A DNA stretch of 64,000 bases from an uncultured Candidatus Peribacteria bacterium (GTDB taxonomy: Bacteria; Patescibacteriota; Gracilibacteria; Peribacterales; Peribacteraceae): contig CAZYQO010000002.1 in the NCBI GenBank assembly GCA_964649695.1, positions 66,728 through 130,727 of the forward strand, read 5' to 3'. The notes below the pieces were generated by a model. The model was given only the letters and a program-made list of their open reading frames with translations. It had not been told where the DNA came from and ran no database searches. A program made the translations under genes and the position numbers. Positions 2,024 through 53,741 of the stretch are shown piece after piece (within the stretch, counting starts at the first letter, position 1; each line of letters starts with the position of its first letter).

Positions 2024-2829
2024 GCTTCCGGCGTCTGTGCGCCGCTGCCCGTGTCCGCTGCCGGGGCAAGCAGAGGCAAACAGGCGGTCAACTGGGTATG
2101 TGCTGCGGCCAGGTTGGACTGTGCGGAGGGCAGATCATCGCCCGTGCCCGCTCGATCGAGCGAGATGCGCGCGGTCTCGAGGCAGGAGATTGCGTCTGCA
2201 TACGATCCCAGTGCCTGGTCATCCATCGCTGCAAGCTCATCCATCGCCGCGCGCAGGCGCCACTGCAGGCGCTCGGCGTCCACATGCGTCTGGGCGATCC
2301 AGACCGGTGTGCGGTAACGGTTCCCCAGGTTCCGTTTGCTCTCTTCCGCGTCAGCTTCCGTGGTGAAGACATCATTGTCGATGCCGGAGACGATTGCGGC
2401 GATTGCCTCGGTCAACGCGTCGGTGGATGTTGTCAGTTCCTGTGTTGCCGGTGTCGATATTGCGGCTCGCAGATCCTGTTTTATTGCACGCAAAGTTTGC
2501 AGTTCCGTCGTGAGATCCCCGCGAAAACAGCGCAGGAGGACGGCGGTTTTTCCGTCACGGTTTGCCCTGCGCAGATCATCATCGCAGCGCGCGGCGAGCT
2601 CCTGCTTCTTGAGATGCATCGCGTTTTTCTGCTTCTGCATGTCGGCCAATGCGGTCGTGTCTTTCTGCAGCGCATCGGCTGCGGGAACCGCGGGAAGCAA
2701 GGCAATACCGGTCGCAAGAATGTCTCGGGGCGGGGTGACCAGTTGTCCGACCAGCCTGCTGCCCACAATGACGGCGATGCCCACTGCGGCGATGGCGAGT
2801 CCTGAAAGTGTCCTGTGCATGGCGTTCAT
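2020..2829 (-). CDS. Hypothetical N-terminally anchored, helical/coiled-coil protein
   Basis: 269-aa ORF with an N-terminal hydrophobic segment (LSGLAIAAVGIAVIVGS). No family recognised. Positioned in an operon with flanking minus-strand genes. Confidence 0.5.
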   Translation of the reverse strand: MNAMHRTLSGLAIAAVGIAVIVGSRLVGQLVTPPRDILATGIALLPAVPAADALQKDTTALADMQKQKNAMHLKKQELAARCDDDLRRANRDGKTAVLLRCFRGDLTTELQTLRAIKQDLRAAISTPATQELTTSTDALTEAIAAIVSGIDNDVFTTEADAEESKRNLGNRYRTPVWIAQTHVDAERLQWRLRAAMDELAAMDDQALGSYADAISCLETARISLDRAGTGDDLPSAQSNLAAAHTQLTACLPLLAPAADTGSGAQTPEA

Positions 2830-2840
2830 CCTACCACTGC

Positions 2841-14429: not shown

Positions 14430-14652
14430 GTGCGAGAAGAATTCTACCCTGTTTTCATTTTTTGAGGCTAGTGAGAGCCACACACCTCAGTCGGTGTCTG
14501 TTGGGCTATCGTTTGTTCTTAAAAATTTACACAAAGTACATAATAATTTCTAATACTATTTGTACATACTATTTTACCGTAAAACACATACTCTCCTCCA
14601 TTCTGTAACAGCGTTTTTTAGGGCTCCCTCTAGAGCAAAAATGCACTTTTTC

Positions 14653-14661
14653 TGCTATAAT
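14653..14661 (+). promoter_or_regulatory. Extended -10 promoter element TGCTATAAT
   Basis: TGCTATAAT lies 7 nt upstream of TTG 14669 (20 nt upstream of ATG 14681), in the AT-rich divergent intergenic region. It is identical to the element at 21324-21332. Confidence 0.4.
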
Positions 14662-14668
14662 CAAGAGA

Positions 14669-16984: not shown

Positions 16985-16986
16985 CT

Positions 16987-18732
16987 ATGCGTAACCCCTT
17001 TTTACTCAAAGGCGCAGAACGTGATGAGTTTTTGCTTATGTTAGTTGTGGCAGCCTTAGGCATATGCACTCTTTGGAACGTGATTGACGATAACATGATG
17101 TATTTCGACTTTGATACACGCTCACATTTGAACGTTGCACGCATGACTCTCGATAATTTAACGCCAGGGTTCAACCAGCTGGGTATTTGGAATCCACTGT
17201 TGCATATATTACTGCAGCCATTTATTTGGGTGTGGCCATTTTACACGTCGGGTGTCGCTGGCTTTTGTCTGCTTATCCCATGTCTATTTCTCAGTGTCGT
17301 CTTCCTTAGGCGTATTATTGTCGAATTGACCACCAATGAACTTTTGGGATCAGCAGGCGGTTTATTATTAGCTTTACATCCTTATGCGCTCTTTTTTGCA
17401 GTCGTGCCGATGACTGAGATGTTGCAAATGACATGCAATCTTGGTTCTGCATATTTCTTAACTCTTTGGCTGAAGAGATCTAGCTTGAAATTTTTGTTGT
17501 ACAGCGGCCTCTTTGCAGCGCTTTCCTGTATGGCTCGTTTTGAAAGCCTTGGACTAGCGCTTGCGATTGGCATTGTCATTGTCATTCATGGCCAATTTCT
17601 TCATAAGAAGGTTTCTGAAATTTTTGCACTATTACAATTATTTTTTCTCGTAGCTTTGCTAGGGATGGCATATTTGGTCATTTATGGAGTGGCATATATG
17701 GATGGGCCACTATCATTTTTGTCACTTGCGTCTTCTTCTGAGGTGGCGCAGCAAAAAACATTGTTGTTTACATTTCAAATTGTTACACATGGACTATTTC
17801 ATATTCATGGCATTCAACTTCTTATAGGCGCAATATGCGCCATCCTGGTGCTTATATTTTTTGCGCGTTCGTTTAAAGAGGAATTGTACGTGCTTTTTGT
17901 CCTTATCAATCCACTTATTGTGGTCTTTTATGCACTTTATACAAAGGCAGGAGTAATACTTTGGGTTCCCGAGCTTCCAAGAATAAACACAGGTCCACCC
18001 ATTGGATATTTTGCAGGAATTAGATTCCTATTGAGCTCAACGCCGTTTGTACTTTTAAGTATTTTTTTGGGGTTGTCTCTAATTCTCAAATATGCAGCCA
18101 GGCTAAATCGTTCGTATGTTCAAGTTTTGGTCATAGTTGTAGTGACATTTTTTATCGGCTCACAATCCATGCGTCTATTCAAAATTGAAAATGCAGCATT
18201 TCCTGCGGCTCAAAAAAGTTCTCAAACCGCATTTGAAATGCGTTTTCATCTGCAAATTGCTGAATATTTAAAAAATAATTACGATTATGGTTTAATCATT
18301 TATTCTCGTATCTCATCAGATATCTTGCAATATCATGCTCAGATCCCGCTAAAAAATTATATCTATACTGCAAACTATCCATATTTTGACCAAGCAGTTC
18401 GTTTTCCTTGGCTATTTTTGCGGTGGGTCATTCTGCCAACTACAGAAACATCTGGTCTATTGGTTGATATGAAGTATTCCGATGATTTTAATAAGTACTT
18501 TGAAAAAGTGCTTGCAGTTCCCGCCACTAAGCTCAAAGGATTTACAGTGTATCGACTGAGAGAAGATATCTTGCGAGAAGATTTGCTTAAATATCATGTC
18601 AATACTCAGGAAGTGCCTTCACTATGGAAGGTGACTCGCACATGGGATACGAATAATATAAACAGGATTCTTCATCTAGAAGATTCACCTTGGCACATTG
18701 AAAGAAGGTATAGCTCTACTAAAAAGTTATGA
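16987..18732 (+). CDS. GT-C superfamily membrane glycosyltransferase (ArnT/PMT-like, polyprenyl-phosphate-sugar dependent)
   Basis: 581 aa with more than 10 predicted TM helices. It has an acidic first-loop motif (VIDDNMMYFDFDTRSH) after TM1 and a C-terminal soluble domain. It starts 2 nt after the upstream gene. Family assignment rests on architecture and motif only. Confidence 0.55.
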   Translation: MRNPFLLKGAERDEFLLMLVVAALGICTLWNVIDDNMMYFDFDTRSHLNVARMTLDNLTPGFNQLGIWNPLLHILLQPFIWVWPFYTSGVAGFCLLIPCLFLSVVFLRRIIVELTTNELLGSAGGLLLALHPYALFFAVVPMTEMLQMTCNLGSAYFLTLWLKRSSLKFLLYSGLFAALSCMARFESLGLALAIGIVIVIHGQFLHKKVSEIFALLQLFFLVALLGMAYLVIYGVAYMDGPLSFLSLASSSEVAQQKTLLFTFQIVTHGLFHIHGIQLLIGAICAILVLIFFARSFKEELYVLFVLINPLIVVFYALYTKAGVILWVPELPRINTGPPIGYFAGIRFLLSSTPFVLLSIFLGLSLILKYAARLNRSYVQVLVIVVVTFFIGSQSMRLFKIENAAFPAAQKSSQTAFEMRFHLQIAEYLKNNYDYGLIIYSRISSDILQYHAQIPLKNYIYTANYPYFDQAVRFPWLFLRWVILPTTETSGLLVDMKYSDDFNKYFEKVLAVPATKLKGFTVYRLREDILREDLLKYHVNTQEVPSLWKVTRTWDTNNINRILHLEDSPWHIERRYSSTKKL

Positions 18733-19769
18733 AAACAAAATTACTATTTTGGGCAAAATTGGCAAAAGAAATTATTTTGAGAGTATCTGCATCCCTGCAA
18801 GATTGGGCATTTATGCTTCGTGTTCGGCCATCTCTATTGAGAGGCAGTAATTTTGTTGAGTTCTTGCGCGAATCTGCCGAATTTCCTGGGGGTATATACA
18901 ATCCGGGTGCAATCGAAGTTCATGGAGCTATTGTGACAGTCTTAAGGGGCGAGCAGTATCGTCCATTCCAATTGTATATAGATTCAACGAAAGCTCTGAA
19001 TTCATGTACCCCACTTCTGGCTTCATACAGTCAAGAAATGCAGCTAAAAAAACCACTGACTAAGCTCTCCCTGGCAGCCTTCCCCGAAAGAAGGACTCAG
19101 CGTTATGAAGATTTTAGATTATTTAGATTTCGAGATAAGATTTTTTCCAATCTTTGTGTTTTTATTCCAAATACAAATTCAGTTTGGCCTTCGGCCATTG
19201 ATTCGGGTAATTACAATCGTCAAGCTCTAGCTGAATTGGACTTACAAAGTATGAGTCTGAATTATGCAAAAGAAGTGCAAATAGATTTTCCCATGCATGG
19301 CCGAGAGAAAAATTTCATGTATTTTGAACACGAAGAAGATCTATATTTGCTGTATTCAATTTGTCCCTATATTTTGCTAAAAGCTCAAAATTGGCCTAAT
19401 GCTAATTTCGTAACAGTACTTCATAAAGAGCTGAATTTGTCTTTTGGTAAAAATAATCAACAAAAAATTCACTTAAGTACAAATCCAGTCGTGCTTGATG
19501 ATAAATATTTGGTCACAATTATCTCTCGTAAAGCCCACGGTTATGGGATATTTAAGACATTGTTCTCCACATGGGTCATTCTAATCGATCGTGCTACTCT
19601 AGAGCCGGTGAAAATCTCGAAACAATGCTTGACCTCAGGGCTCAGTGTATATTTTTCGAGTCTTATCGTCGAAGGCGATAGTTTGCTACTTTTTGGCGGT
19701 CAGGATGATAGGCGCTGCTGCTTTACTCGCTTGTCTAAAAAGGCGATCGAATTCGATAACATCGAATAG
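18729..19769 (+). CDS. Hypothetical protein, possibly a GH130/DUF377-like beta-propeller glycan-active enzyme
   Basis: 346 aa. Start overlaps the upstream stop (ATGA). Weak motif resemblance only: GIYNPGAI, YEDFRLFRF (like EDPR), REKNFMYFE (like EKNW.pF). Confidence 0.35.
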   Translation: MKTKLLFWAKLAKEIILRVSASLQDWAFMLRVRPSLLRGSNFVEFLRESAEFPGGIYNPGAIEVHGAIVTVLRGEQYRPFQLYIDSTKALNSCTPLLASYSQEMQLKKPLTKLSLAAFPERRTQRYEDFRLFRFRDKIFSNLCVFIPNTNSVWPSAIDSGNYNRQALAELDLQSMSLNYAKEVQIDFPMHGREKNFMYFEHEEDLYLLYSICPYILLKAQNWPNANFVTVLHKELNLSFGKNNQQKIHLSTNPVVLDDKYLVTIISRKAHGYGIFKTLFSTWVILIDRATLEPVKISKQCLTSGLSVYFSSLIVEGDSLLLFGGQDDRRCCFTRLSKKAIEFDNIE

Positions 19770-19809
19770 CATCAACACATATTTAAGATGCTGTTTATTA
19801 ATTTCAAAT

Positions 19810-21213
19810 TTACAGGTTGCTGAAGTTGGCCTTTGAGCGTCGACGGATATCGGGCAACGAAGAAGCGATCTGCTGTTTTGTTGCATCGCTCGTATTTAAG
19901 GTTTTTTGTATGTGTGAAGACAGCGAGGGGACATGCATGACTTCTTCGGACGGGATGCTGCAATCCCTAAGCTTAAACATTTGAAGTAAGCCCTCAAATT
20001 TGTCTTGATATGTAATGCAAAATACGGGCACCCCTGTGTTGAGACACTTGATTGCTAGATGCATTCTTCCTGTGATTGTGCAATCAAGTTTTGAGCAAAT
20101 GAATTGCAGCTCAGATTGGGAAAAAACGGGTGGCACGATTTGAACCTTTTTCTTTAGCGACACCGGCAGTCCCTCGAGAATGAGGGTAGCCATAGTGCGG
20201 TCACTGTTGGCGTCAATCTTTCGCGTGTCGTGCGGTATCAACACAAAACAGATACGCTCGTACATTTCGGCGCAATCCGTGATAGTTTGAATATACATTT
20301 TAATGATACGATCACTGCCGCCTTCGTATGACATTGCGTTGTGAATACTTGGATTTATGCCAATTACCAATTGGTTATTTGTCTTCTGTTCCAGTAGCCA
20401 ATCTAGAAAGTCATTGTTCGTAGGTTCTTCGCTTTTCAGAAGAAATGCAACATCTGCCACTTCTTCAATATGCCGACCGGTGCAGATCTGCAATCTCTCA
20501 TGTGATATAGGATCGCGCGCACAAATGCGTACATTAGTGGATAGACGCCTTAAGTCTTGGACTACAGAACAGACGGGGTGAGCATTAAAGCTGCTTCCCA
20601 ATATTGTTGTGCTGTTGCCGAACTTAGCGGCTGCATTGGTCAATGCAATCCGAAGACGTGAGCCTATTTCTGAATAGGCACCATCAATGACATCTGCGCC
20701 GATACAGAAAAAGTAGTCGTGTAGCTGAATGGCTCGCACGGTTTTGAATATTGACAAAGGCGAGAATGCGCCATGCCAAGGGAACATTAATGACACCCCA
20801 GCGCTGGCTAGTTTTGGGTTCATAAAATCCCATTCATGTTTGTCTGCGGCGGATAAATATCTGACAGTATCGATTTTCATTTTTAGAATTTCATCGATTG
20901 TTACCCTCATCATTGTTTCGTCGCCTAAGCTGCCCGGAAATGAAGGCGGTAAAATAAGTGCAGTGCGTTTTGTTTTTGTCTGCTTTCCAAGCCACTGCGA
21001 AACAATTATTGCTATCCATAATATGGATCTAAAATATGCAAGAAGTAAAAAGGTACACGCTTGGATGCAGACTGTAGTCAGCACAGGAAAATATGCATGC
21101 GTAACACGAGTAATTCGAGTAAGCTTCCACGTATCGGTAGAGTAGTGTTGACATGTCAACTCGCATGTTTTTTTAATATTTAATTCCACTTCGATTGGCA
21201 TAGTGTGACTCAT
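19810..21213 (-). CDS. Polysaccharide pyruvyl transferase family protein with N-terminal TM segment
   Basis: PPSFPGSLGDE, CIGADVIDGAY and TGRMHLAIKCLNTGVPVFCITYQDKFEGL blocks typical of CsaB/WcaK-type pyruvyl transferases. TM segment at aa ~45-75. Confidence 0.65.
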   Translation of the reverse strand: MSHTMPIEVELNIKKTCELTCQHYSTDTWKLTRITRVTHAYFPVLTTVCIQACTFLLLAYFRSILWIAIIVSQWLGKQTKTKRTALILPPSFPGSLGDETMMRVTIDEILKMKIDTVRYLSAADKHEWDFMNPKLASAGVSLMFPWHGAFSPLSIFKTVRAIQLHDYFFCIGADVIDGAYSEIGSRLRIALTNAAAKFGNSTTILGSSFNAHPVCSVVQDLRRLSTNVRICARDPISHERLQICTGRHIEEVADVAFLLKSEEPTNNDFLDWLLEQKTNNQLVIGINPSIHNAMSYEGGSDRIIKMYIQTITDCAEMYERICFVLIPHDTRKIDANSDRTMATLILEGLPVSLKKKVQIVPPVFSQSELQFICSKLDCTITGRMHLAIKCLNTGVPVFCITYQDKFEGLLQMFKLRDCSIPSEEVMHVPSLSSHIQKTLNTSDATKQQIASSLPDIRRRSKANFSNL

Positions 21214-21323
21214 GTATTTAATGTAACTCTAGCATCTATTTAATTTATTGTACATAATCGACCCTTTACCTGTAAAAAACGAGTAGGCGATTGCAATCGT
21301 CATTAGATCTTCTTATCTATATA

Positions 21324-21332
21324 TGCTATAAT
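21324..21332 (+). promoter_or_regulatory. Extended -10 promoter element TGCTATAAT positioned for a leaderless transcript
   Basis: TGCTATAAT is followed by 7 nt (atatatt) and then ATG 21340. No Shine-Dalgarno. Confidence 0.45.
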
Positions 21333-21339
21333 ATATATT

Positions 21340-22440
21340 ATGGCAGATCTTGAGAAAGAAAAAAATATCAATTCAACACCTGATATAAATGCGCCTGTTT
21401 TTTTAGATACAACAGGTGGATCGTTATCAGATTCACCTGCCAAAGTGGTGGTGCCGCAAAGTGCTATGCTAAGTATAGCAAGTGATCATTTTGGGGTGGC
21501 AGAGGTCAACATCAAATCATCACAATCCTGCATTTCTCCATGGAAATTTACTTCAGCTGCTTGCGCAGCTTTAGTACTGGGAATGCTATTTATGTATTTA
21601 GTGTTATCTTTTTTTAGACCAAATCACTCCGGCTCTTCGGATGCAGCAAAAGATAGTTTGGCAACGCGTTTTTTGGCTTCAGGAGCAGAATTGACCATCG
21701 TCAATGACGATGGTAAGGATTTGAAGGTAACCAAAGCAGCCGAGGCTCCTGATCCGTTACTCATCACAGGTGTTTCCTTTGGTACAAATGCGGACACGTC
21801 TGTTTTAGAGGAGATTTATCAACTTCGGAGCCTCCGCAATCTTACAATCTCGAATGTTGAAATTAGTCAGTCAAATTTGGTTTCTTATCTTAAGCAAGCG
21901 AGTGCGTCTGTTACTTCGTTGCAGCTGTCGCAGCTGCCCGATATTGATGTAAATGATGAGCTGATAGAGGTGATCCGCACTTCTTTTCCTGCTCTTAAAA
22001 CACTCAGCATCAAGGGATTAACAGTATCAGAGGGAAGTATTGCGGGCATAGCAAAAATGCCATATTTGCAGATATTAAATCTTGCAGACACGAATCTTAC
22101 GGATGCTGAACTTTACGCACTGAAAAACATGAAATTGGCATCCCTTGATGTAAGTATGACGAAGGTGACAGCTCATGGCCTCATTCAAATGCGTCCCTAC
22201 GTCAAGACACTGAGTCTAGCTTCTTTAGATATAAATGATGAGGATATTAAATTAATTGCAAATTATTTTCAGATTTTACAAAAGCTAAATATTGCCGCCT
22301 CAAATGTTTCTGATGATAGTGTTCCTTTAATCCAAAACATGGCTCAACTCACATCATTAAACATAAAAGAAACAAAGATTTCTTCTTTTGGGATTATCAA
22401 GATTCAACAGAGTTTGCCTGGCTGCAAAATTACAAAATGA
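21340..22440 (+). CDS. Single-pass membrane protein with leucine-rich repeat (LRR) ectodomain
   Basis: TM at aa ~70-92 (AACAALVLGMLFMYLVLSFF). About 9 LRR units (LRNLTISNVEIS.., LKTLSIKGLTV.., LQILNLADTNLTD..). C-terminal IKIQQSLPGCKITK. Confidence 0.7.
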   Translation: MADLEKEKNINSTPDINAPVFLDTTGGSLSDSPAKVVVPQSAMLSIASDHFGVAEVNIKSSQSCISPWKFTSAACAALVLGMLFMYLVLSFFRPNHSGSSDAAKDSLATRFLASGAELTIVNDDGKDLKVTKAAEAPDPLLITGVSFGTNADTSVLEEIYQLRSLRNLTISNVEISQSNLVSYLKQASASVTSLQLSQLPDIDVNDELIEVIRTSFPALKTLSIKGLTVSEGSIAGIAKMPYLQILNLADTNLTDAELYALKNMKLASLDVSMTKVTAHGLIQMRPYVKTLSLASLDINDEDIKLIANYFQILQKLNIAASNVSDDSVPLIQNMAQLTSLNIKETKISSFGIIKIQQSLPGCKITK

Positions 22441-22458
22441 TAAACAACATGCAGCTTT

Positions 22459-24456
22459 TTATTTATTAATAACGCATTTTGGCATGTTTTTTTGCAACTG
22501 TTGGAGCCCCATTGGAGACAGTTGTGTGCTTGTTACATTAAGACTGGAAAGCGTCTCGATTGCACTCAGTGTGGGTACTGAACGGTCGGAGATTAGTGTT
22601 TTTGCCAAGGATAAATAGGATAGCTTCATGGCTTTGAGGTTCGTGACCATTTCGTCATTAACCTTGACGCCATCAAGTCGCAAAACCTTAATAGGAAGCT
22701 TCGAAATAATCTCGAGTGTCCTTGATCCGGCATTTGTATTGGAAATAGACAGAACCTCAAGGTTCTGTAATTGGGCGATTGAAGAAAATTCAGCGTCACC
22801 CGCTGCACAATCGGTTATTTTTAGAGATGTGAGTCCGCGCAATTGTCCGAGATATGCCATCCAAGCCAAATTTTGGCTCTTACTTGCCGTAATGCTAGTA
22901 ATGGAAAAATCTCCGGGCGGAAGATCTTTTGCGTTGCCCACGCTTCCTGGAGCGGATGGTGATCCTGATGTTGTAATTTTCACTCCAGCAAGCAGGAGTT
23001 GTTCTGCGAACTTGCGTTCAAATTTTGCCTGGTTATCGTTTGTGGGTGCCACCTCTGCTGCTGGTGGAGTGCTGGCGGCAGTTGGAGCAACAGGAGGCAC
23101 AGCCGTGGCTCCGGCAACATCGAGTGTTGCTGATCTTGGTTCGATATGTGGATTCTTGGTAAAGATGTCGTTCACTGTTACCAGTGAGATGCCACCAAGG
23201 CCGTGTTTTTTGGCCTCAGAAAACATATGGCCAGCAAATAGCTTAAAGCTATTTTGCAAAGCAGAGTCTGACATTGCTTGCGCGTCCTGCCATGCTTTCA
23301 GGCCAGCTTGAAAGAATCCGTCAGCGCCGATAGCGTCGACTTTCTTTCCTGTGGCCGGATCTACTTCAGGGTCGTATTTCCTAATAAAGGGGCTTTGGCC
23401 AAGACGCAGATGATATAAGGCGCTTTCCCATTTATTTTCGATGAATGCATATTCGCCCAAACTCTTATGCCCCTCGGTGTCCAATGGGGTCTTTTTCCCT
23501 ATAGCAATAATCGCTTTGTTCGTAACACCTAGTTCTCGATTGATGCCCTTCGCATCGTCGATAAGCTCGCTCTCGCGGATATCGGAGGGATTTTTGTTTA
23601 TGAAAGTCTGCACTAAAGGTTGCACGAGAGGGGTAATTTTGCGTGCTGTTGCCAAATCCTCATCGTCGCGCTTATCGGAGGGCAGATCTATATATCTATT
23701 GAGATAGAGCTGTGCGCAATTGAGGCGGCTTGCCGCAAGATCGATACGCAATGCAGCATTGTTGCGCATTGTTGGATGGCTGCTGGCGCCAGTGAGCGTG
23801 GCAACACGCAATTTGCGGATAGTGGCAGCTGTTTCAATGCCTTCTTGCTCCATGGCTGCAATTTCTGTTAATGCCATTTGATATTCGCCGTCGGCATTCA
23901 GTAGACGGATGTGAGCGTTGCCTTCCAGTGATCGTTCGCTCTTTGAATAAAGCATGCTTGTGCCGTTTGCCAACCGGCTATTGCCAATGAATGAAAGCGC
24001 AAGTGACTGAGCTTCCGCGCTTTTGCTTTGTCTTGCAACACTCCATGCTTCTTGGGCAATTGCTCGCAAGAGAGCGGGTGAATTTTTGGCCTCATCAAGA
24101 ACAGACACACCTATGATCCGTTGCACGAGGACAGATCCTTTTTCTGGCGTTGGCTGCATGCTGAACGCAGCGTATTCTTGCTGCAATAGGGCTTTCAGTT
24201 GCTGGATATTCATATCAATTTCCTTCGCGCTGGGTGGCGGAATTGGGATTTCCTGTGCAGAAGAGTCTGCGGCAGCGACAGTGGCAACGACCTTACTGGG
24301 GGTTTCCTCTGCACTCGAATGAGCAGCAGTATTTCCCAGTACACCCAAAAGAATGCTGTAGCGTAGTGCTTTCGTGATGCTGCCTGGAAGCCGCACATTT
24401 GCTTCCTTTTCAGGAGTATGGGGTTGCTCGCGATCTTGATGATCTAGATAGCCCAT
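22459..24456 (-). CDS. Secreted/anchored protein with helical central region, Ala/Pro linker and C-terminal LRR domain
   Basis: LRR units LTSLKITDCAAGD.., LEVLSISNTNAG.., LSYLSLAKTLISD... C-terminal LQQLQKNMPKCVINK parallels the neighbouring LRR protein. ATG 24456 is preferred over TTG 24492 because a TTGACA-N17-CACAAT promoter spans 24472-24500. Confidence 0.65.
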   Translation of the reverse strand: MGYLDHQDREQPHTPEKEANVRLPGSITKALRYSILLGVLGNTAAHSSAEETPSKVVATVAAADSSAQEIPIPPPSAKEIDMNIQQLKALLQQEYAAFSMQPTPEKGSVLVQRIIGVSVLDEAKNSPALLRAIAQEAWSVARQSKSAEAQSLALSFIGNSRLANGTSMLYSKSERSLEGNAHIRLLNADGEYQMALTEIAAMEQEGIETAATIRKLRVATLTGASSHPTMRNNAALRIDLAASRLNCAQLYLNRYIDLPSDKRDDEDLATARKITPLVQPLVQTFINKNPSDIRESELIDDAKGINRELGVTNKAIIAIGKKTPLDTEGHKSLGEYAFIENKWESALYHLRLGQSPFIRKYDPEVDPATGKKVDAIGADGFFQAGLKAWQDAQAMSDSALQNSFKLFAGHMFSEAKKHGLGGISLVTVNDIFTKNPHIEPRSATLDVAGATAVPPVAPTAASTPPAAEVAPTNDNQAKFERKFAEQLLLAGVKITTSGSPSAPGSVGNAKDLPPGDFSITSITASKSQNLAWMAYLGQLRGLTSLKITDCAAGDAEFSSIAQLQNLEVLSISNTNAGSRTLEIISKLPIKVLRLDGVKVNDEMVTNLKAMKLSYLSLAKTLISDRSVPTLSAIETLSSLNVTSTQLSPMGLQQLQKNMPKCVINK

Positions 24457-29155: not shown

Positions 29156-29229
29156 TGGAGCGGGTAGCGGGAATCGAACCCGCGTCCTCAGCTTGGAAGG
29201 CTGATGTACTACCATTGTACGATACCCGC
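29156..29229 (-). tRNA. tRNA-Gly (anticodon UCC), CCA encoded
   Basis: Hand-folded cloverleaf: GCGGGTA/TACCCGC acceptor, anticodon arm TCAGC-CTTCCAA-GCTGA, T-arm GCGGG-TTCGATT-CCCGC, terminal TCCA. Confidence 0.9.
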
Positions 29230-43979: not shown

Positions 43980-45026
43980 ATGACCGTCGAGAGGAAGCAA
44001 AAGCGCGAATCGGCAGTGGAACCGGCAGCTGCAGCCCCCGAGGAGCAGCAGGTGGAAAATGGCCTGCGACCCAGGCGGCTTTCGGAGTATGTGGGGCAGC
44101 AGAAAATCAAAGAACATCTCCTTGTGCATATCGATGCCGCCAAGCACCGCATGGAACCGCTGGGGCACACCTTGCTCCATGGTCCTCCGGGACTGGGCAA
44201 GACCACCCTCGCCCATATCATCGCTTCGGAGATGGGCTGCTCGATCCGCGTGACCAGTGGACCCGCCATAGAGAAGGCAGGGGACTTGGCGTCGCTCCTC
44301 ACCAACCTCGAGAAGGGCGATGTCCTCTTTATTGATGAGATCCACCGCCTGCGACCGCAGATCGAAGAGGTGCTGTATGCCGCGATGGAAGACTGCGTGC
44401 TCGACATCATGATTGGCAAAGGCCCCACCGCACGCTCCGTGCGCCTGACGCTGCAACCCTTCACCCTCGTGGGTGCCACCACCAAGGCCGGCGTGGTCAG
44501 CGCGCCGCTGCGCGACCGCTTTATGCACCAGTTCAAGCTGGCGTTCTACGAGCCCATCGAAATGCGACAAATCGTGGAGCGCAGCGCGCAGATCCTTGGC
44601 ACGCCCATCGCACCCGCCGCCGCAGAGCGCATCGCAAGCAGCAGCCGCGCCACCCCGCGCATTGCCAACCGCCTTGTCCGTTCGGTGCGCGACTTTGCAC
44701 ACGCGGGGAACCTGAGCGCCATTGATGCCGCGCTGGTGGAGCGCACATTGCAGAGCCTGGAGATCGACAGCGACGGCCTCGACCGCACCGACCGCGCGCT
44801 GCTCGCCGTACTCATTGATCAGTTCAACGGCGGCCCCGTGGGCTTGGGCACCCTCGCGGCGATCCTGGCCGAAGAAGAAGACACGATTGAAGATGTGTAC
44901 GAGCCCTACCTTATGCAATCCGGTCTGCTGCAGCGCACGCCCAAAGGCCGCATGGCTACGCCTCGAACCTATGAGAAACTGGGGAAGAAGGCGCCTGAAA
45001 ACAAAAGTCAGGTAGAAATGTTTTAA
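43980..45026 (+). CDS. ruvB: Holliday junction branch migration helicase RuvB
   Basis: RPRRLSEYVGQQKIKEHL, Walker A GPPGLGKTTLAHIIA, Walker B VLFIDEIHRL, sensor GATTKAG..S.PLRDRF. Confidence 0.92.
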   Translation: MTVERKQKRESAVEPAAAAPEEQQVENGLRPRRLSEYVGQQKIKEHLLVHIDAAKHRMEPLGHTLLHGPPGLGKTTLAHIIASEMGCSIRVTSGPAIEKAGDLASLLTNLEKGDVLFIDEIHRLRPQIEEVLYAAMEDCVLDIMIGKGPTARSVRLTLQPFTLVGATTKAGVVSAPLRDRFMHQFKLAFYEPIEMRQIVERSAQILGTPIAPAAAERIASSSRATPRIANRLVRSVRDFAHAGNLSAIDAALVERTLQSLEIDSDGLDRTDRALLAVLIDQFNGGPVGLGTLAAILAEEEDTIEDVYEPYLMQSGLLQRTPKGRMATPRTYEKLGKKAPENKSQVEMF

Positions 45027-45044
45027 ATTTCTATCATTTTTTTT
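45013..45044 (+). terminator. Putative intrinsic terminator overlapping the ruvB stop codon
   Basis: TAGAAAT (45013-45019) pairs with ATTTCTA (45027-45033), followed by tca and T8 (45037-45044). Confidence 0.55.
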
Positions 45045-45658
45045 CTAGCCTTCATATCAGACAGCATTTCTTCGTTTTTGCGTATAAATTCTGAAAACTT
45101 TTTTGTTTTGCTGTTTTTGCGGTTTCTGAATGCTTCGTTTAATTTTTCGGTTAAATGTATGGCAACCTGCAATAAACATTCAGTTGTAGCATTGTTGTAA
45201 TCGACTGCCAGTTTTTTTAAACCAGAATCAGATTCATCTTTCAGAAACAGTTTATGGAACAAGTCATTTCGTCGTGTATGCAGACTATGAAGTGTTGATG
45301 CAGTATTGATTAGACCGATTCGAGCCGCTTCATTATAAATTGATCGGTCACTGATTTGGCCAAGTAGCGGATGGCTGTGATCAGTAAATAATTCGTCAAT
45401 GTAGTCGTTACCTCTTTGATCTATTTTAAGAATAATTCCTTTTCTTAAAATTGCATTAATTGCGTTAAAACTGATCGCTATAGATTCAAAGTAATAGCCC
45501 TTTTTTAAAGCATCATCTTGCTTCTTCATCCATTTTTCTGAAATAAATGACCATTCGGGGTTAGACTCGGGTCTTTTCATAAATGCAGGAAAGGAATTTG
45601 GATTTAGTAAATTTTTGCGCTTGTTCATGCTGTGCATTACATCCAAATTGTGATGCAT
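45023..45658 (-). CDS. HEPN-motif protein (Abi-like candidate RNase) in an AT-rich insertion
   Basis: R-x4-H motif RRNDLFH lies at 45254-45274 in a predicted helical protein. The local sample 45121-45220 is 34% GC (hand count). Start uncertain (ATG at 45658, 45637, 45628 or 45580). The N-terminal part overlaps the 3' end of the glycosyltransferase gene. Confidence 0.5.
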   Translation of the reverse strand: MHHNLDVMHSMNKRKNLLNPNSFPAFMKRPESNPEWSFISEKWMKKQDDALKKGYYFESIAISFNAINAILRKGIILKIDQRGNDYIDELFTDHSHPLLGQISDRSIYNEAARIGLINTASTLHSLHTRRNDLFHKLFLKDESDSGLKKLAVDYNNATTECLLQVAIHLTEKLNEAFRNRKNSKTKKFSEFIRKNEEMLSDMKARKKMIEI

Positions 45659-46649
45659 CGAATCTCACTATTGCGCTCATAAGCGACTCCGCCGTCGGCT
45701 CATCGAAGAACATCCCCGTCTTTCCTTCCTCCACTGTCTCCAGCGCCCCACCGCCGCGATAGGCAATGACCGGCGTGCCACAGGCCATGGCTTCGAGCGG
45801 GACAAGGCCAAAGTCTTCCTCGCCGGGGAACAGCACCGCCTGTGCGCCGGCGTAGAGGTCGATCAGCTCCTGCCCGTCTTTGCGACCGCGGAACTCGGTG
45901 TGGGAGCCTGCAAGCCGTTTGAGGCGGGGCATGTCTGCTCCTTCCCCCACGATGATCAGGCGCTTGCCCAGCCGCTCGCACGCTTCGATGGCCAGGTCGA
46001 TACGCTTGTAGTGCGCGAGGGTGGAGACGACGAGGAAATATGGGGATAGGGCTGGGGATAGGGACGGCTTGGCATGTAAAAACATGTCGTCGATCGGCGG
46101 GTGGATCACCGTGCTCTCGCGGCGCCAGTACAGCTCGATGCGTCGTTGCACTTCTTTGGATGGGGCGATGAGCACATCGGGTCGCTCGGAGCTTTCGCTG
46201 TCCCAGATCCGCAGCTTGTGGAAGAGTTTTGCGAGGTAGGGCTTGTTAAGGAACCCCAGCGGCTGTTTGCCCACGCGCTCCAGCACATCGTGTGTGCGAT
46301 CCCACAGGTAGCGGGCGGGGGAGTGGACATAGCAGATGTGCTTGGGTTTGCCGTTGGTGATGATGCCGTGGACGAAGGCCGAGGAGCTGCTGATCACGAG
46401 ATCGAACTCGGAGAAATCCCAGCTCTCCACCTGCGTGGCGAACCTGCCGAGGTAGTGGTGGTGGTTATAGCCAAGGATGGGTCGGCGGTAGCCACGCACG
46501 CGCGAGGCGGGGAACCAGTCACCGAGTTTCTTCTCGTTGTAGAGCAGCGTGTAGATGGGCGCATCGGGATACTGATCTGCAAGGATCTTGAAGACGCGTT
46601 CGGCGCCGCCTTTCATGGTGAGCAGTTCGTGGACGAGGGCGATCTTCAT
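45561..46649 (-). CDS. Glycosyltransferase family 4 (GT-B, group 1)
   Basis: 362 aa. C-terminal domain LFPGEEDFGLVPLEAMACGTPVIAYRGGGALETV. The last ~30 codons lie in the AT-rich insertion. Confidence 0.8.
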   Translation of the reverse strand: MKIALVHELLTMKGGAERVFKILADQYPDAPIYTLLYNEKKLGDWFPASRVRGYRRPILGYNHHHYLGRFATQVESWDFSEFDLVISSSSAFVHGIITNGKPKHICYVHSPARYLWDRTHDVLERVGKQPLGFLNKPYLAKLFHKLRIWDSESSERPDVLIAPSKEVQRRIELYWRRESTVIHPPIDDMFLHAKPSLSPALSPYFLVVSTLAHYKRIDLAIEACERLGKRLIIVGEGADMPRLKRLAGSHTEFRGRKDGQELIDLYAGAQAVLFPGEEDFGLVPLEAMACGTPVIAYRGGGALETVEEGKTGMFFDEPTAESLMSAIVRFDASQFGCNAQHEQAQKFTKSKFLSCIYEKTRV

Positions 46650-50102: not shown

Positions 50103-50178
50103 TGGTGGGTCGGGAGGGGTTCGAACCCTCGACCAATGCCTTAAAAGGGCACTGCTCTACCAGCTGAGCTACCGACCC
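50103..50178 (-). tRNA. tRNA-Lys (anticodon UUU), CCA encoded
   Basis: GGGTCGG/CCGACCC acceptor, anticodon arm GTGCC-CTTTTAA-GGCAT, T-arm GAGGG-TTCGAAC-CCCTC, terminal ACCA. Confidence 0.9.
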
Positions 50179-50236
50179 AAAGAACGTGCGGGGAGTATAT
50201 CGTGTTTTTTGCGTCCGTCGATGTAGTCTGTGGGTC

Positions 50237-51001
50237 ATGATCGACTCCCACTGCCACTTGGCCGACGCACAATTCGCCGATGATCTGCAGGCGGTGCTCG
50301 GGCGGGCGGCGCTGGAGGGCGTTGCCACGATGGTCACCATCGGTGACAGCATTGAGGAGTCGAAAAAATGCATAGAGCTGGCGGAGAACCATGAACAGAT
50401 TTTTTGTGCGATCGGTGTGCATCCCCACAATGCCAAGGAGTGGACATCGTGGGATCTGCAAACGTTCAAGGCGCTCGCGGCATCGTCGCCCAAGGTGAGG
50501 GCGATCGGGGAGATCGGCTTGGATTACCATTACGATTTCTCCGAGCCGGCCGATCAGCGTACCGCATTTTTGCAGCAGCTGATGTTGGCCAAGGAAGTCG
50601 CATTGCCCGTGGTGGTGCACTGCCGCGAGGCCGTGAACGACGTGTGGGCGATTGTCGATGATGTGAAGCCCGAAAAGCTGGTCATCCACTGCTGCACGGA
50701 AAAGTGGAAGGACGTGGAGCGGTTTGTGGAGCGCGGGTACCTGTTGTCGTTCACGGGCATCGCCACCTATGCCAACGCCCAAGACGTGCGCGACTGCATC
50801 CGTCACTGTCCGCTTTCGCAGATGATGATCGAAACCGACGCCCCCTATCTCGCGCCCGTGCCCCATCGCGGCAAGCGCAACGAGCCGTCGTTCGTGACGG
50901 AGGTCGCCAAGCTGATCGCGCAGGAAAAGGGGGTCAGTCTGCAGGAAGTGGACGTTGCGACGACGCGGAATGCCGTAGAGTTTTTTGGCTTATCACAGTA
51001 A
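50237..51001 (+). CDS. tatD: TatD family metal-dependent hydrolase (DNase)
   Basis: MIDSHCHL, GEIGLDYHY, VVVHCREA, ETDAPYLAP blocks. Confidence 0.88.
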   Translation: MIDSHCHLADAQFADDLQAVLGRAALEGVATMVTIGDSIEESKKCIELAENHEQIFCAIGVHPHNAKEWTSWDLQTFKALAASSPKVRAIGEIGLDYHYDFSEPADQRTAFLQQLMLAKEVALPVVVHCREAVNDVWAIVDDVKPEKLVIHCCTEKWKDVERFVERGYLLSFTGIATYANAQDVRDCIRHCPLSQMMIETDAPYLAPVPHRGKRNEPSFVTEVAKLIAQEKGVSLQEVDVATTRNAVEFFGLSQ

Positions 51002-51014
51002 TCTCCCGCTTGTC

Positions 51015-51089
51015 GTCCCCGTAGGTTAACGGATAGACCACTGGCCTCCGAAGCCGGGAATACAGGTTCAATTCCTGTCGGGGACACCA
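51015..51089 (+). tRNA. tRNA-Arg (anticodon CCG), CCA encoded
   Basis: GTCCCCG/CGGGGAC acceptor, anticodon arm CTGGC-CTCCGAA-GCCGG, T-arm ACAGG-TTCAATT-CCTGT, terminal ACCA. Confidence 0.85.
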
Positions 51090-51201
51090 CTCATTTTCCA
51101 CGGCGTCAGTGGATTTTTTTTGCTGCGTAGACTTGGTTATTTCACAAGATTTTGCTACAATACCAAGAACACAACATTCACAACCTTCACCTCTTCTCCG
51201 T

Positions 51202-52530
51202 ATGATTTCCGCCGATCAGGATTCGTCGCATGTCGAGCATCAGCAGTCCATCAGCTGCCTTGTGACTCCGCATGACGCACCGCACTCCGCAGATCCCCGT
51301 ACCTCCTCCCTTCGTCTCATGGTGTTCTTCGCAACGATGGCCATCCCCGTTCTGCTGCTGGCCAGTTCCACGCAACAGTTTGCGTATCGCCCAGGCGCGC
51401 TGCCCGGCACCCATGGTGCCGCCACCGCCAGCGGCACGACGGCACCTGCGGCCGGTATGACCGGCTCGGTGAATTCCGGCAGCAAGATCGATGCCATGCG
51501 TGAGAAGCGCCGCGCCGCCAACCCGGGTGTGGAACCCTGGCATCCGTCCGCTCCTGAGCATGCCGACAACCACACCGGCGTGTATCTCACGATCTCATCT
51601 GCCCAGAACGAACAGAAGCTGCGCGACACGATCAAGGCGCTCAAGGAGCGCGGCGAGACCTCCATCGTTGTCGATGCAAAAGGCGGTCGCGTGCACTATG
51701 CGTCGAATGCCCCCTATGCCAACGAGCTCGGCCTCGTGAATCCGTATCTCGACATCGACAAGGTGATTCGGATCGCCCACGAAGAAGGCATGTACCTTAT
51801 CGCGCGCACGGTCACGCTCAAGGACGATGGCCTCTACGACAAAGTGCCTGCAGCCCGCGTAAAGAATCCAAAGACGGGCGCCACGCTCGCCCCAGGCTGG
51901 ACGGATCCGGCCAGCCCCGAGACGCAGCGGTACAACTACGAAGTGTTCTGCGAGCTCGCGCAGAAGGGATTTGACGAGATCAACATGGACTACATTCGCT
52001 TCTCCACGGCCGATTTCGGCAATCTTCGCGCCTATACAGGTCAGGAGAAGGCAGACCGTCTTGTGGCGTTCATCAAGGGGGCAAGGGAAAAGATCGCCGA
52101 ATGCAATCCGGCCACGAAGCTCGGCGTTTCCACGTTCGCCATCATCGGTTGGAATTATGACGTGAACGTCGAAACCCTTGGTCAGGATATCAAGCGCATC
52201 GCACCGTACGTCGACATCATCTCGCCGATGGCCTACCCCGCCACGTTCACGAGCGAGGGCTACTACGTCCCCGGCAAGCATCCGCGCAGTCGCATGTACT
52301 GGCTCGTGTACCGCACGATCAAGGGCTATGCCGACTTCCTCGGCGCCGATGCCGTGAAGCTGCGCCCCTGGATCCAGGGCTACTACGTCGATGCCAAGGA
52401 CATGCGCGAACAGATGGACGCCCTCACCGATGCAGGCGCCTGCGGCTTCCAGGTGTGGAACGCCAATAACAACTACGGTCCCGTCTATCAGGCGATGGGC
52501 AACTGGGAGTTGCCGGAGAACTGCAAGTAA
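51202..52530 (+). CDS. Putative secreted TIM-barrel glycoside-hydrolase-like protein (DUF4015/GHL-type)
   Basis: GVYLT.SSA...L...I....E.G..SIVVDAK...G.V.Y, IARTVTLKDD, DEINMDYIRF blocks. N-terminal TM (MVFFATMAIPVLLLA). Start uncertain (GTG 51109 or ATG 51202). Confidence 0.6.
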   Translation: MISADQDSSHVEHQQSISCLVTPHDAPHSADPRTSSLRLMVFFATMAIPVLLLASSTQQFAYRPGALPGTHGAATASGTTAPAAGMTGSVNSGSKIDAMREKRRAANPGVEPWHPSAPEHADNHTGVYLTISSAQNEQKLRDTIKALKERGETSIVVDAKGGRVHYASNAPYANELGLVNPYLDIDKVIRIAHEEGMYLIARTVTLKDDGLYDKVPAARVKNPKTGATLAPGWTDPASPETQRYNYEVFCELAQKGFDEINMDYIRFSTADFGNLRAYTGQEKADRLVAFIKGAREKIAECNPATKLGVSTFAIIGWNYDVNVETLGQDIKRIAPYVDIISPMAYPATFTSEGYYVPGKHPRSRMYWLVYRTIKGYADFLGADAVKLRPWIQGYYVDAKDMREQMDALTDAGACGFQVWNANNNYGPVYQAMGNWELPENCK

Positions 52531-52581
52531 ACACCGTCGACAGGATGCAAAGGCATAGGGTCTCCCCTATGCTTTTTGCGT

Positions 52582-53277
52582 ATGCCTTCCGGTGTGAAAG
52601 CGGCGCTGCTGGAACTCCACGACCCCAAAAAGGCCGCGTTCTTCCCGAAGTTCTTTAAGGCAGGGAAAGGGGAATATGCCGAGGGTGATCGTTTCCTTGG
52701 CCTGTCTGTGCCGCAGATGCGCGCGATCGCCAAGCAGCATGTTGGTCTGTCCTTTTTGCATATCGAGCCGCTGCTTGCCGATGCGTATCACGAGGTGCGC
52801 CTCGTGGCGCTGTTCATCCTGACCATGCAGTATGAGCAGGCGGACGAGCGACAGAGGAAAGCGATCGTGGAGTTTTATCTCTCCCATCTCGAGGGAGTGA
52901 ACAACTGGGATCTTGTCGACTGCAGCGCCTACAAGATTCTCGGGGATTGGCTGCTCACACACGATCGCAAGATTCTCGTGCGTTTCGCCAAGAGCGGAGA
53001 GCTGTGGAAACAGCGCATCGCCATCGTGAGCACCTATGCGTTGATCAGGGCAGGGGACTATGCCGATACCCTGGCCATCGCCACGTTGCTCCTGGGGCAT
53101 GACCACGATCTGATCCACAAGGCGGTGGGCTGGATGCTGCGGGAGGTGGGCAAACGGGACAAAAAGACCCTGCTGGGCTTTCTGGAGATGCATGTGCGCC
53201 AGATGCCCCGTACGGCGCTGCGGTATGCCATAGAGCGGTTCCCTGAGGCTGAGCGCCGCCGCTGGTTGGCACGCTAA
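52582..53277 (+). CDS. DNA alkylation repair protein (AlkC/AlkD-like HEAT-repeat glycosylase family)
   Basis: LHDPKKAAFFPKFFKAGKGEYAEGDRFLGLSVPQMRAIAK ... NNWDLVD ... HDLIHKAVGWMLREVGK. Confidence 0.8.
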   Translation: MPSGVKAALLELHDPKKAAFFPKFFKAGKGEYAEGDRFLGLSVPQMRAIAKQHVGLSFLHIEPLLADAYHEVRLVALFILTMQYEQADERQRKAIVEFYLSHLEGVNNWDLVDCSAYKILGDWLLTHDRKILVRFAKSGELWKQRIAIVSTYALIRAGDYADTLAIATLLLGHDHDLIHKAVGWMLREVGKRDKKTLLGFLEMHVRQMPRTALRYAIERFPEAERRRWLAR

Positions 53278-53326
53278 AGAGGTGTTGCACCCCGCCCCGC
53301 CTCTCCGTACCATGTCGTGGCTCTTT

Positions 53327-53403
53327 GCGGACATAGCTCAATTGGCTAGAGCGTCGCCTTGCCAAGGCGAAGGTTGCGGGTTCGAGTCCCGTTGTCCGCT
53401 CCA
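53327..53403 (+). tRNA. tRNA-Gly (anticodon GCC), CCA encoded
   Basis: GCGGACA/TGTCCGC acceptor, anticodon arm TCGCC-TTGCCAA-GGCGA, T-arm GCGGG-TTCGAGT-CCCGT, terminal TCCA. Confidence 0.88.
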
Positions 53404-53600
53404 TTTTCTGAGAGGAACCTACGACGGTTCCTCCCAGTACCCACCTCCCTGCAGAAGAGTTCCTCACCGAAGCAAAGCTCTGGTTCGGAACGGTTCCTTT
53501 TCTGAGAGGAACCTACGATATTTCTTCTCGTAGGCTCGTTTTCCCTGTCCAGGGAGTCGTTGGAGGAGAACAAAGCTCGCTTCATGACGATTCATTAGAA
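53404..53600 (+). repeat. tRNA-trailer element, copy B1 (53404-53491) plus a degenerate tandem copy B2 (from 53498)
   Basis: The 21-nt TTTTCTGAGAGGAACCTACGA is repeated exactly at 53404 and 53498. B1 hairpin GAGAGGAACC-TACGAC-GGTTCCTCCC. B2 hairpins CCTACGA/TCGTAGG and TCCCTG/CAGGGA. Confidence 0.7.
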
Positions 53601-53667
53601 ATTTTCTAGGGCGAAGCTTAGACTCTGCCGGTCATTTATCGTTCTTTCGCAAGGAATATCCGATCGC

Positions 53668-53741
53668 GCGGGATTAGTACAGTGGTAGTACGCTAGCTTC
53701 CCAAGCTAGAGATGCGGGTTCGATTCCCGTATCCCGCTCCA
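53668..53741 (+). tRNA. tRNA-Gly (anticodon CCC), CCA encoded
   Basis: GCGGGAT/ATCCCGC acceptor, anticodon arm CTAGC-TTCCCAA-GCTAG, T-arm GCGGG-TTCGATT-CCCGT, terminal TCCA. Confidence 0.88.

Follow-up and report, generated by a model that had tools for sequence, protein, structure and literature searches.

What does a single AT-rich gene do between two GC-rich neighbours in a bacterium of the candidate phyla radiation? The window analysed here, a 64-kb stretch of DNA (64,000 nucleotides) from an uncultured Candidatus Peribacteria bacterium (contig CAZYQO010000002.1), is GC-rich: 56% GC overall and 60–66% around a short AT-rich patch. The patch lies between ruvB and a gene for a family 4 glycosyltransferase (GT4, hereafter GT) and contains one open reading frame (ORF), which is a real gene. 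This HEPN-like gene occupies a variable slot; it is not a housekeeping gene, nor is it a recent insertion private to this genome. By analogy with characterised proteins we read its product as a HEPN-family RNase with a toxin or defence role, and put the probability of this full statement at about 0.55. The argument turns on the following features (GC3, GC content at third codon positions):

43980 to 45026, plus strand: ruvB (Pfam RuvB_N, AAA_lid_4 and RuvB_C), convergent with the HEPN-like gene
44995 to 45660: AT-rich patch, about 34% GC and GC3 about 0.3, in a backbone of 61–63% GC
45023 to 45580, minus strand: HEPN-like gene, 185 amino acids from M27, the most likely start
45561 to 45659, minus strand: tail of the GT4 gene, its last 33 codons, with AT-rich codons, homologous to the tails of relatives and overlapping the 5' end of the HEPN-like ORF
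45660 to 46649, minus strand: body of the GT4 glycosyltransferase gene, of backbone composition (Pfam Glycos_transf_1 at 7e-27)

The AT-rich patch contains a real gene

The patch takes in the HEPN-like gene entirely, together with some nine codons at the 3' end of ruvB and 33 codons at that of the GT gene. In a 200-nucleotide profile, GC content drops from 0.60–0.70 to 0.31–0.39 between about 44990 and about 45660 and then recovers. Positions 45027–45660 have a GC content of 0.345, against 0.628 in the body of ruvB and 0.613 in the body of the GT gene. A first-pass annotation of this DNA had counted 34% GC by hand over 45121–45220, and the exact value is indeed 0.34. It had also called the insert foreign in composition, which third codon positions bear out (GC3 of 0.31 in the HEPN-like gene versus 0.77–0.79 in the flanking genes).

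Could the ORF be an accident of composition? It is open to 45658 (45023 to 45658, minus strand), giving 211 amino acids from M1. Shuffling the patch 2000 times gave longest stop-free runs of 66 codons on average and 156 at most; a run of 211 was never reached, and thus the ORF is not a chance product of AT-rich DNA. The single ORF of up to 211 amino acids that had been described between the convergent ruvB and glycosyltransferase genes is therefore present, and the patch has no second one. A gene caller's product in a public collection (P0001) is the 185-amino-acid form starting at M27. Because the gene caller used M27 and the N-terminal lengths of the homologs fit it, we prefer this start.

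The first-pass picture needs one correction in orientation: the HEPN-like ORF lies on the same strand as the GT gene (whole gene 45561 to 46649, minus strand). It overlaps the GT 3' end by 20 nucleotides from M27, or by 98 from M1. This same-strand overlap suggests co-transcription, and the HEPN-like gene is probably transcribed together with the upstream GT gene; neither a promoter nor a Shine-Dalgarno sequence of its own was detected. At its other end, the stop codons of the HEPN-like gene and of convergent ruvB overlap at 45023–45026 (TTAA). This leaves no room for a terminator, so each transcript must continue antisense into the other gene.

The product resembles HEPN proteins in motif and profile

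What kind of protein does the patch encode? A word-index homolog search with the window protein found only itself. With phmmer, an exhaustive search over 1.8 billion representatives yielded 23 homologs, of which the best are 44–45% identical (E about 1e-22), and a profile built from these found 65 proteins, three of which are named "YutE (UPF0331/DUF86 family)" by the Joint Genome Institute (JGI). The family comprises about 85 distant homologs, all from metagenomes. Residues are numbered here on the 211-amino-acid form, and conservation is counted in the 84-sequence alignment A2. The motif and the conserved positions are:

45254 to 45271, minus strand: predicted catalytic motif R130-N131-D-L-F-H135, of the Rx4H type with a polar N after the R
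G54: kept in 76/84
E58 (45485 to 45487, minus strand): kept in 82/84
L71: kept in 83/84
R72: kept in 82/84
R105: kept in 76/84, with K in 6 more
Y108: kept in 79/84
R130: kept in 78/84
N131: kept in 79/84
H135: kept in 79/84

The longer motif L-H-T-R-R-N-D-L-F-H, which the first-pass annotation had singled out, is present at residues 126–135; its span had been given as 45254–45274 and is corrected to 45254–45283. Conservation of the arginine and histidine among homologs had been proposed there as a check, and R-N-x3-H is kept in 78–79 of the 84 sequences. Two residues beyond the histidine, 64/84 members have Y and 16/84 have L; the window protein has L137 (R-N-D-L-F-H-K-L), as in its sub-branch. 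HEPN proteins (Pfam clan CL0291 in the sense of Anantharaman et al. 2013) are recognised by a conserved Rx4-6H, a polar residue (N, D or H) directly after the R, and a conserved acidic residue upstream (PMC3710099). The window protein has the Rx4-6H with its polar residue. E58 is a candidate for the second conserved acidic residue of HEPN active sites, matching by position only and lacking a clear Ex3[KR] context.

A sub-clade of five members (P0014, P0015, P0018, P0020 and P0023) lacks the R, N and H, with S-A-R, K-T-R, C-F-R or L-L-R in their place. It keeps E58, R72 and the fold positions, and its members are presumably inactivated HEPN variants. Two other members depart from the common architecture: P0017 (284 amino acids) has a C-terminal TPR_21 (YfgM-like) domain (E = 7.5e-30), and P0005 (270 amino acids) has an N-terminal extension of about 100 amino acids.

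Scanning the 84 members against Pfam gave sub-threshold matches to these families:

HepT-like: 42/84 members
HEPN_RiboL-PSP: 26/84 members
NTase_sub_bind: 16/84 members
DUF4145: 15/84 members
DUF3644: 8/84 members
HepT-like_2: 3/84 members
HEPN_Cthe2314: 1/84 members

The four most-matched of them (HepT-like, RiboL-PSP, NTase_sub_bind and DUF4145) are HEPN families. NCBIfam HepT_toxin likewise matches 41/84 members. The stretches matched in Pfam include the motif, and the alignment of one member, P0033, to RiboL-PSP-HEPN extends over almost all of that profile (positions 43–190 of 191, 24.2 bits). Each single match is weak. That half of the members should all point to HEPN families can hardly be chance. 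The only Pfam match of the window protein itself, to Tipalpha (E = 0.03), is spurious.

The first-pass annotation had also called for a structure prediction. HEPN domains are all-alpha up-and-down helical bundles in which the motif lines a cleft between the two subunits of a dimer. From a single sequence, the AlphaFold model was unusable (predicted local distance difference test, pLDDT, 44). Guided by the 84-sequence alignment, it is all-helical with 7 helices (pLDDT 82.7, predicted template modelling score 0.77). The expected helical protein is thus predicted, and its Foldseek matches to HEPN entries are weak. The match of highest probability (0.80) is 1wwp, with a target template modelling score (TM-score) of 0.60 and an E-value of 1.5, the best of any HEPN entry. 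Further weak HEPN matches are 8xeh_D (target TM-score 0.50) and the HepT toxins 7ae6, 7ae8, 8xdj and 8yuf (0.39–0.43). Foldseek found no match among viral structures, and weak PDB sequence matches (KsgA, ELL2 and others) were judged to be chance. The predicted structure is compatible with a HEPN fold, weakly and not as proof. On motif and profile grounds, membership of the HEPN superfamily is nevertheless well supported, and we regard the earlier claim of a HEPN-type protein as very probably correct.

The gene occupies a variable slot between GT and ruvB

Is the gene peculiar to this genome? Homologs of the GT protein in species-representative genomes place the organism in Peribacteria (Peregrinibacteria, candidate phyla radiation), the best being 57–61% identical. 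The four closest genomes share the convergent GT/ruvB arrangement, and what lies between the two genes differs:

L001, 1220 to 1372: 152 bp, no gene
L002, 7136 to 7783: a secreted protein of 213–215 amino acids
L003, 5569 to 6210: a secreted protein of 213–215 amino acids
L004, 7483 to 7818: an acidic ORF of 111 amino acids

The L002 and L003 proteins are 35% identical to each other, with a weak DcrB match, and the window contains no homolog of the slot proteins of L002, L003 and L004. Among the 80 GT loci examined there is no member of the HEPN family. A metagenome scan with a 23-nucleotide conserved pattern from the ruvB 3' end returned two unrelated organisms (RuvB 57–59% identical) and no family member. 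The comparison of the ruvB–GT junction with relatives, suggested by the first-pass annotation, thus reveals no shared housekeeping gene, the HEPN-like gene being absent from the slot in four Peribacteria genomes.

The closest homolog, P0002, nevertheless occupies the same slot on L088, a 3-kb contig of a clearly nearer relative from another sample. There the GT is 74% and RuvB 80% identical to the window proteins (the RuvB alignment runs to the end), and the HEPN gene follows directly after the GT gene with an ATGA start/stop overlap, convergent with ruvB and 34 bp from it. The L088 patch is equally AT-rich (31–38% GC versus about 60%). Given this homolog, which shares the slot and the AT-richness and is 44% identical to the window protein, the insertion is neither private nor demonstrably recent.

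Synteny does not make P0002 a closer relative. When only gap-poor alignment columns are counted, the identity of the window protein is 40% to P0002 and 40–41% to the non-syntenic P0003 and P0004. P0003 (L089) lies in an unrelated context, where it too is AT-rich and sharply bounded within a GC-rich genome; P0004 (L090) lies between PBP2-like and GlmS-like genes, as read from their translations. In L088, L089, L090 and L091 also, GC content is lower in the family gene than in its flanks. These comparisons suggest that the HEPN-like gene either has evolved much more rapidly than the genes around it or has been exchanged for another allele.

The 3' ends of the flanking genes bear on how the patch arose. 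The C-termini given in the first-pass annotation, RuvB ...NKSQVEMF and GT ...KFTKSKFLSCIYEKTRV, are correct. From their AT-richness it had concluded that the native 3' ends of the two genes had been replaced when the patch was inserted; this does not hold, since each tail can still be aligned with the native tails found in relatives. The window GT tail, FDASQFGCNAQHEQAQKFTKSKF..., aligns with those of L088, L001, L002 and L004 (for example FDRSRFSSDACHTQAEKFNRKDF) in the shared pattern F-D-x-S-x-F...A-x-x-F-x-K-x-x-F. The last nine or so codons of ruvB are AT-rich, and the tail they encode is still homologous to that of L088 (SQVEMF against SQQEGMF). These alignments rule out replacement by unrelated sequence.

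Codon usage in the GT gene switches abruptly, from a GC3 of 0.79 in the body to 0.27 in the last 33 codons. The L088 GT gene behaves likewise (tail 0.34, body 0.79), and the boundary falls at the same codons (…EPTAESL) in both. In GT genes not followed by a HEPN gene there is no drop (tail/body GC3 of 0.83/0.83 in L002 and 0.51/0.50 in L004). At most, the GT tail would have been swapped for a homologous tail of foreign codon usage.

The GT protein is conserved at 40–45% identity over many phyla. With 30.5 bits it lies weakly above the cut-off (26) of a second Pfam model, GT4-conflict (PF20706); its Glycos_transf_1 score is much higher, and the GT4-conflict match is probably not meaningful.

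How, then, could the gene have come to the slot? A repeat search found no meaningful direct or inverted repeats at the patch flanks, and the boundaries have neither a recombinase gene nor a tRNA gene, the nearest tRNA gene being about 5 kb off. These results do not fit a discrete mobile element (insertion sequence, transposon or integrative island), which would be expected to carry terminal repeats or its own recombinase or integrase, or to abut a tRNA or att site; nor does the patch contain a second ORF. We propose that a donor of lower GC with the same GT–HEPN arrangement supplied the patch by homologous recombination, the crossover lying inside the GT gene. This could have happened once, in a common ancestor, or repeatedly, as allele exchange through the same flanks. 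Recombination via the flanks would explain why the last 33 GT codons are homologous to those of relatives yet carry the codon usage of the patch. Arrival and later exchange by homologous recombination through the GT and ruvB flanks is the most likely origin.

Other members of the family have no common partner

Does the gene act alone? The first-pass annotation had described a solitary gene, and this is upheld: the patch contains no ORF for the nucleotidyltransferase MNT or any other partner, and no neighbour is common to the eight other genomic contexts of the family. No MNT gene was seen in contexts L081, L085 and L088–L095. The more distant members have these neighbours:

L081: DndB and a methyltransferase nearby; a small unannotated ORF of 67 amino acids upstream
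L085: UDG
L093: a type ISP restriction enzyme and a Toprim gene; small upstream ORFs of 114 and 124 amino acids
L094: an integrase, an IS3 transposase, HicB and ParE
L095 (P0007 context, 2779 to 3972): the HEPN gene, an overlapping ORF of 397 amino acids without a Pfam match, then a UvrD-type helicase

Several of these neighbourhoods are of mobile or defence type, and the L095 arrangement may be a multi-gene version of the system. The small upstream ORFs of distant members have no Pfam match and are not shared between contexts.

Proposed function and control

What would such a protein do? By analogy with characterised HEPN enzymes, it would be a metal-independent endoribonuclease. Its active site would be formed by R130, N131 and H135, probably together with E58, and would probably be completed by homodimerisation. 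When activated, it would act as a growth-arresting toxin or abortive-infection effector; on this analogy, a minimal toxin or phage-defence gene is plausible.

The window protein has neither the acceptor tyrosine of HepT toxins nor an MNT partner, so that its control must be intrinsic. Three options can be proposed: (i) very low expression, through rare AT-rich codons (GC3 of 0.31, host GC3 near 0.78) and, with no promoter or Shine-Dalgarno sequence of its own, through translation coupled to the upstream GT gene; (ii) auto-inhibition by the C-terminal helices; and (iii) antisense interference from the convergent, overlapping ruvB transcript. A bolder proposal is a self-contained, single-protein HEPN RNase module for immunity or addiction in bacteria of the candidate phyla radiation. 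It would be an AT-rich cassette swapped among Peribacteria genomes by homologous recombination via the GT and ruvB flanks, in a polymorphic "defence slot", and its lasting AT-richness would throttle toxin translation in a GC-rich host, serving as a safety catch in place of an antitoxin. We offer this tentatively and think it unlikely as a whole.

Several results weigh against a HEPN RNase with a toxin or defence role. The window protein matches no HEPN model in Pfam, PADLOC, NCBIfam or PHROGs even at E <= 10, nor any defence model of PADLOC-DB v2 at E <= 10. All member matches fall below the curated cut-offs (best 2e-4 and 3.6e-5). PDB sequence searches with the window protein and two family profiles returned no HEPN chain. 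Designed helical bundles head the Foldseek matches in the PDB, with a best E-value of 0.6, ahead of the HEPN entries. Immediately around the gene stand housekeeping genes (ClpB, an AI-2E transporter, Dus, ribosomal protein L1, RuvB, the GT4 and a P-type ATPase) rather than a defence island, and tblastn searches of phage and plasmid collections returned no member of the family. Loss of R, N and H in five members shows that the fold can persist without catalysis. Finally, a solitary constitutive RNase toxin without an antidote would be hard to maintain, and a regulatory or non-toxic role is possible.

Such a role is the alternative that survives best: a HEPN-fold protein acting as an RNA-processing or regulatory RNase, or as a binding module that works with the upstream GT. 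In both the window and L088 the gene directly follows the same GT4 gene and overlaps it; the neighbourhood is housekeeping, no antidote gene is visible, and the weak GT4-conflict match of the GT may or may not be meaningful. However, the link to the GT is limited to the window and L088, no member standing beside any of the 80 GT homologs, and the neighbours of other members are unrelated. The gene is also missing in four relatives with the same synteny. Being far more diverged than its flanks and compositionally foreign, it fits an accessory or conflict gene better, and we think a non-toxic role unlikely.

Alternatively, the protein could be the toxin of a two-part system whose antidote has been missed: an RNA antitoxin (type I or III), a short ORF that overlaps the gene, or an MNT gene at another genomic site. 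Toxins without a partner are seldom stable, and the ruvB transcript must enter the gene, the stop codons overlapping. An RNA-regulated AbiF HEPN system has been reported (PMC12373285). Small unannotated ORFs also stand just upstream of the family gene in L081 (67 amino acids) and L093 (114 and 124). Against this, the patch has no tandem (ToxI-like) repeats, promoter, terminator or Rfam RNA above chance. In the 64-kb window, a loose scan for the GSX10DXD motif of MNT yielded no convincing ORF, and the tyrosine that accepts adenosine monophosphate in HepT is a leucine in the window protein, which argues against control by MNT. The upstream ORFs of distant members also lack Pfam matches and do not recur between contexts. 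We think a missed antidote unlikely, slightly more so than a non-toxic role.

Decay is improbable. A decaying or non-functional leftover of an old transfer, its frame open by chance or through weak constraint and its AT-richness due to AT-biased mutation in the absence of selection, would account for the extreme composition, the lack of detectable expression signals and the overlaps with both neighbours. But an ORF of 185–211 codons is intact in DNA of 34% GC, in which shuffles never exceed 156 codons. All near-invariant residues are kept, including R130, N131, H135, E58, R72 and Y108, and the L088 homolog is intact despite 56–60% amino-acid divergence. The intact ORF, the retained residues and the intact homolog together indicate purifying selection on fold and motif.

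An assembly chimera, in which a foreign low-GC read cluster was joined into a GC-rich contig, might be suspected from the very sharp compositional boundaries and the metagenomic source, but it is for practical purposes ruled out by L087, a contig of 1257 bp that was assembled independently from run SRR14271365 and is 100% identical to the window over the GT 3' end, the ORF and the ruvB 3' end, across both junctions, and by the same architecture in L088 (ERZ3430527), a different organism in a different sample, while the GT and ruvB frames continue through the boundaries with their homology to relatives kept.

Other low-GC regions of the window

The patch is not unique in composition. A second, larger low-GC island lies at about 14300–23000 of the window (33–45% GC versus about 60%). 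It encodes a polysaccharide-type cluster, with a 771-amino-acid double GT2 glycosyltransferase and a polysaccharide pyruvyl transferase, together with a protein that has weak LRR matches below the Pfam cut-offs and several ORFs without a Pfam match. This island is probably a horizontally exchanged surface-glycan locus. Smaller low-GC patches occur at 8.9–9.2 kb (8900–9200) and 28.5–28.9 kb, the latter adjoining tRNA-Gly(tcc) at 29156–29229. Four tRNA genes are clustered at 50.1–53.7 kb (50103–53741): Lys-ttt, Arg-ccg, Gly-gcc and Gly-ccc.

Significance

To our knowledge, few defence or toxin systems have been recognised in bacteria of the candidate phyla radiation, and a one-gene HEPN module, if that is what the slot holds, would be among the smallest conceivable. 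New HEPN families are found regularly, and function is inferred here. The family has no model in Pfam, NCBIfam, PADLOC or PHROGs; defining it would let proteins now called "hypothetical" be annotated. The slot is also a natural experiment, with alleles about 40–44% identical between flanks that are 74–80% identical and a compositional boundary inside a conserved gene. It could serve to test flank-mediated recombination of accessory toxin genes, and to ask why such genes are AT-rich in GC-rich hosts.

Comparison with known systems

How does the family compare with known HEPN systems? In type VII systems, HepT toxins carry an RX4HXY motif whose tyrosine is polyadenylylated by an adjacent MntA with a GSX10DXD motif (PMC7641770). 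HepT-like is the commonest sub-threshold match of our family (Pfam 42/84, NCBIfam 41/84), and some members bear DUF86 names from JGI. Small size and an all-helical structure add to the likeness, as does R-x4-H within the matched stretch; most distant members have the full RX4HXY (Y in 64/84). In contrast, the window protein has Leu137 where HepT has the tyrosine that MntA modifies, and no MNT gene is adjacent in the window or in any sampled context. It is also some 60–80 amino acids longer than the model of about 120 positions, with two extra C-terminal helices. No member exceeds the PF01934 or NF047751 cut-off (best E = 2e-4 in Pfam and 2.8e-5 in NCBIfam). We therefore reject a HepT/MntA type VII module, since the tyrosine and the MNT are both missing.

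The RiboL-PSP-HEPN family (PF18735), which keeps Rx4-6H and is distant kin of AbiF and AbiD (PMC3710099), is the second commonest match (26/84; best 24.2 bits against a cut-off of 28.4). Unlike its proteins, the window protein has no fused endoribonuclease L-PSP domain and no ParB operon. With AbiD/AbiF (Abi_2) the window gene shares being solitary and AT-rich in its host, but Abi_2 is not among the 25 most-matched Pfam families in the scan of members.

Likeness to DUF4145/AbiU2-like proteins is weak and partial (15/84 members match DUF4145). DUF4145 proteins are usually fused to restriction or helicase modules (PMC3710099), whereas the window protein is a single domain with a helical tail. 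The HEPN-T family (PF05168; 1wwp) gives the top Foldseek probability, again in a weak and partial match. PADLOC matches of members are weak as well, to the DRT-associated RTas1465 (25/84, best 7.5e-5) and to DUF3644. We read the family as a new, previously unmodelled branch of HEPN proteins, nearest to HepT/DUF86 and RiboL-PSP-HEPN.

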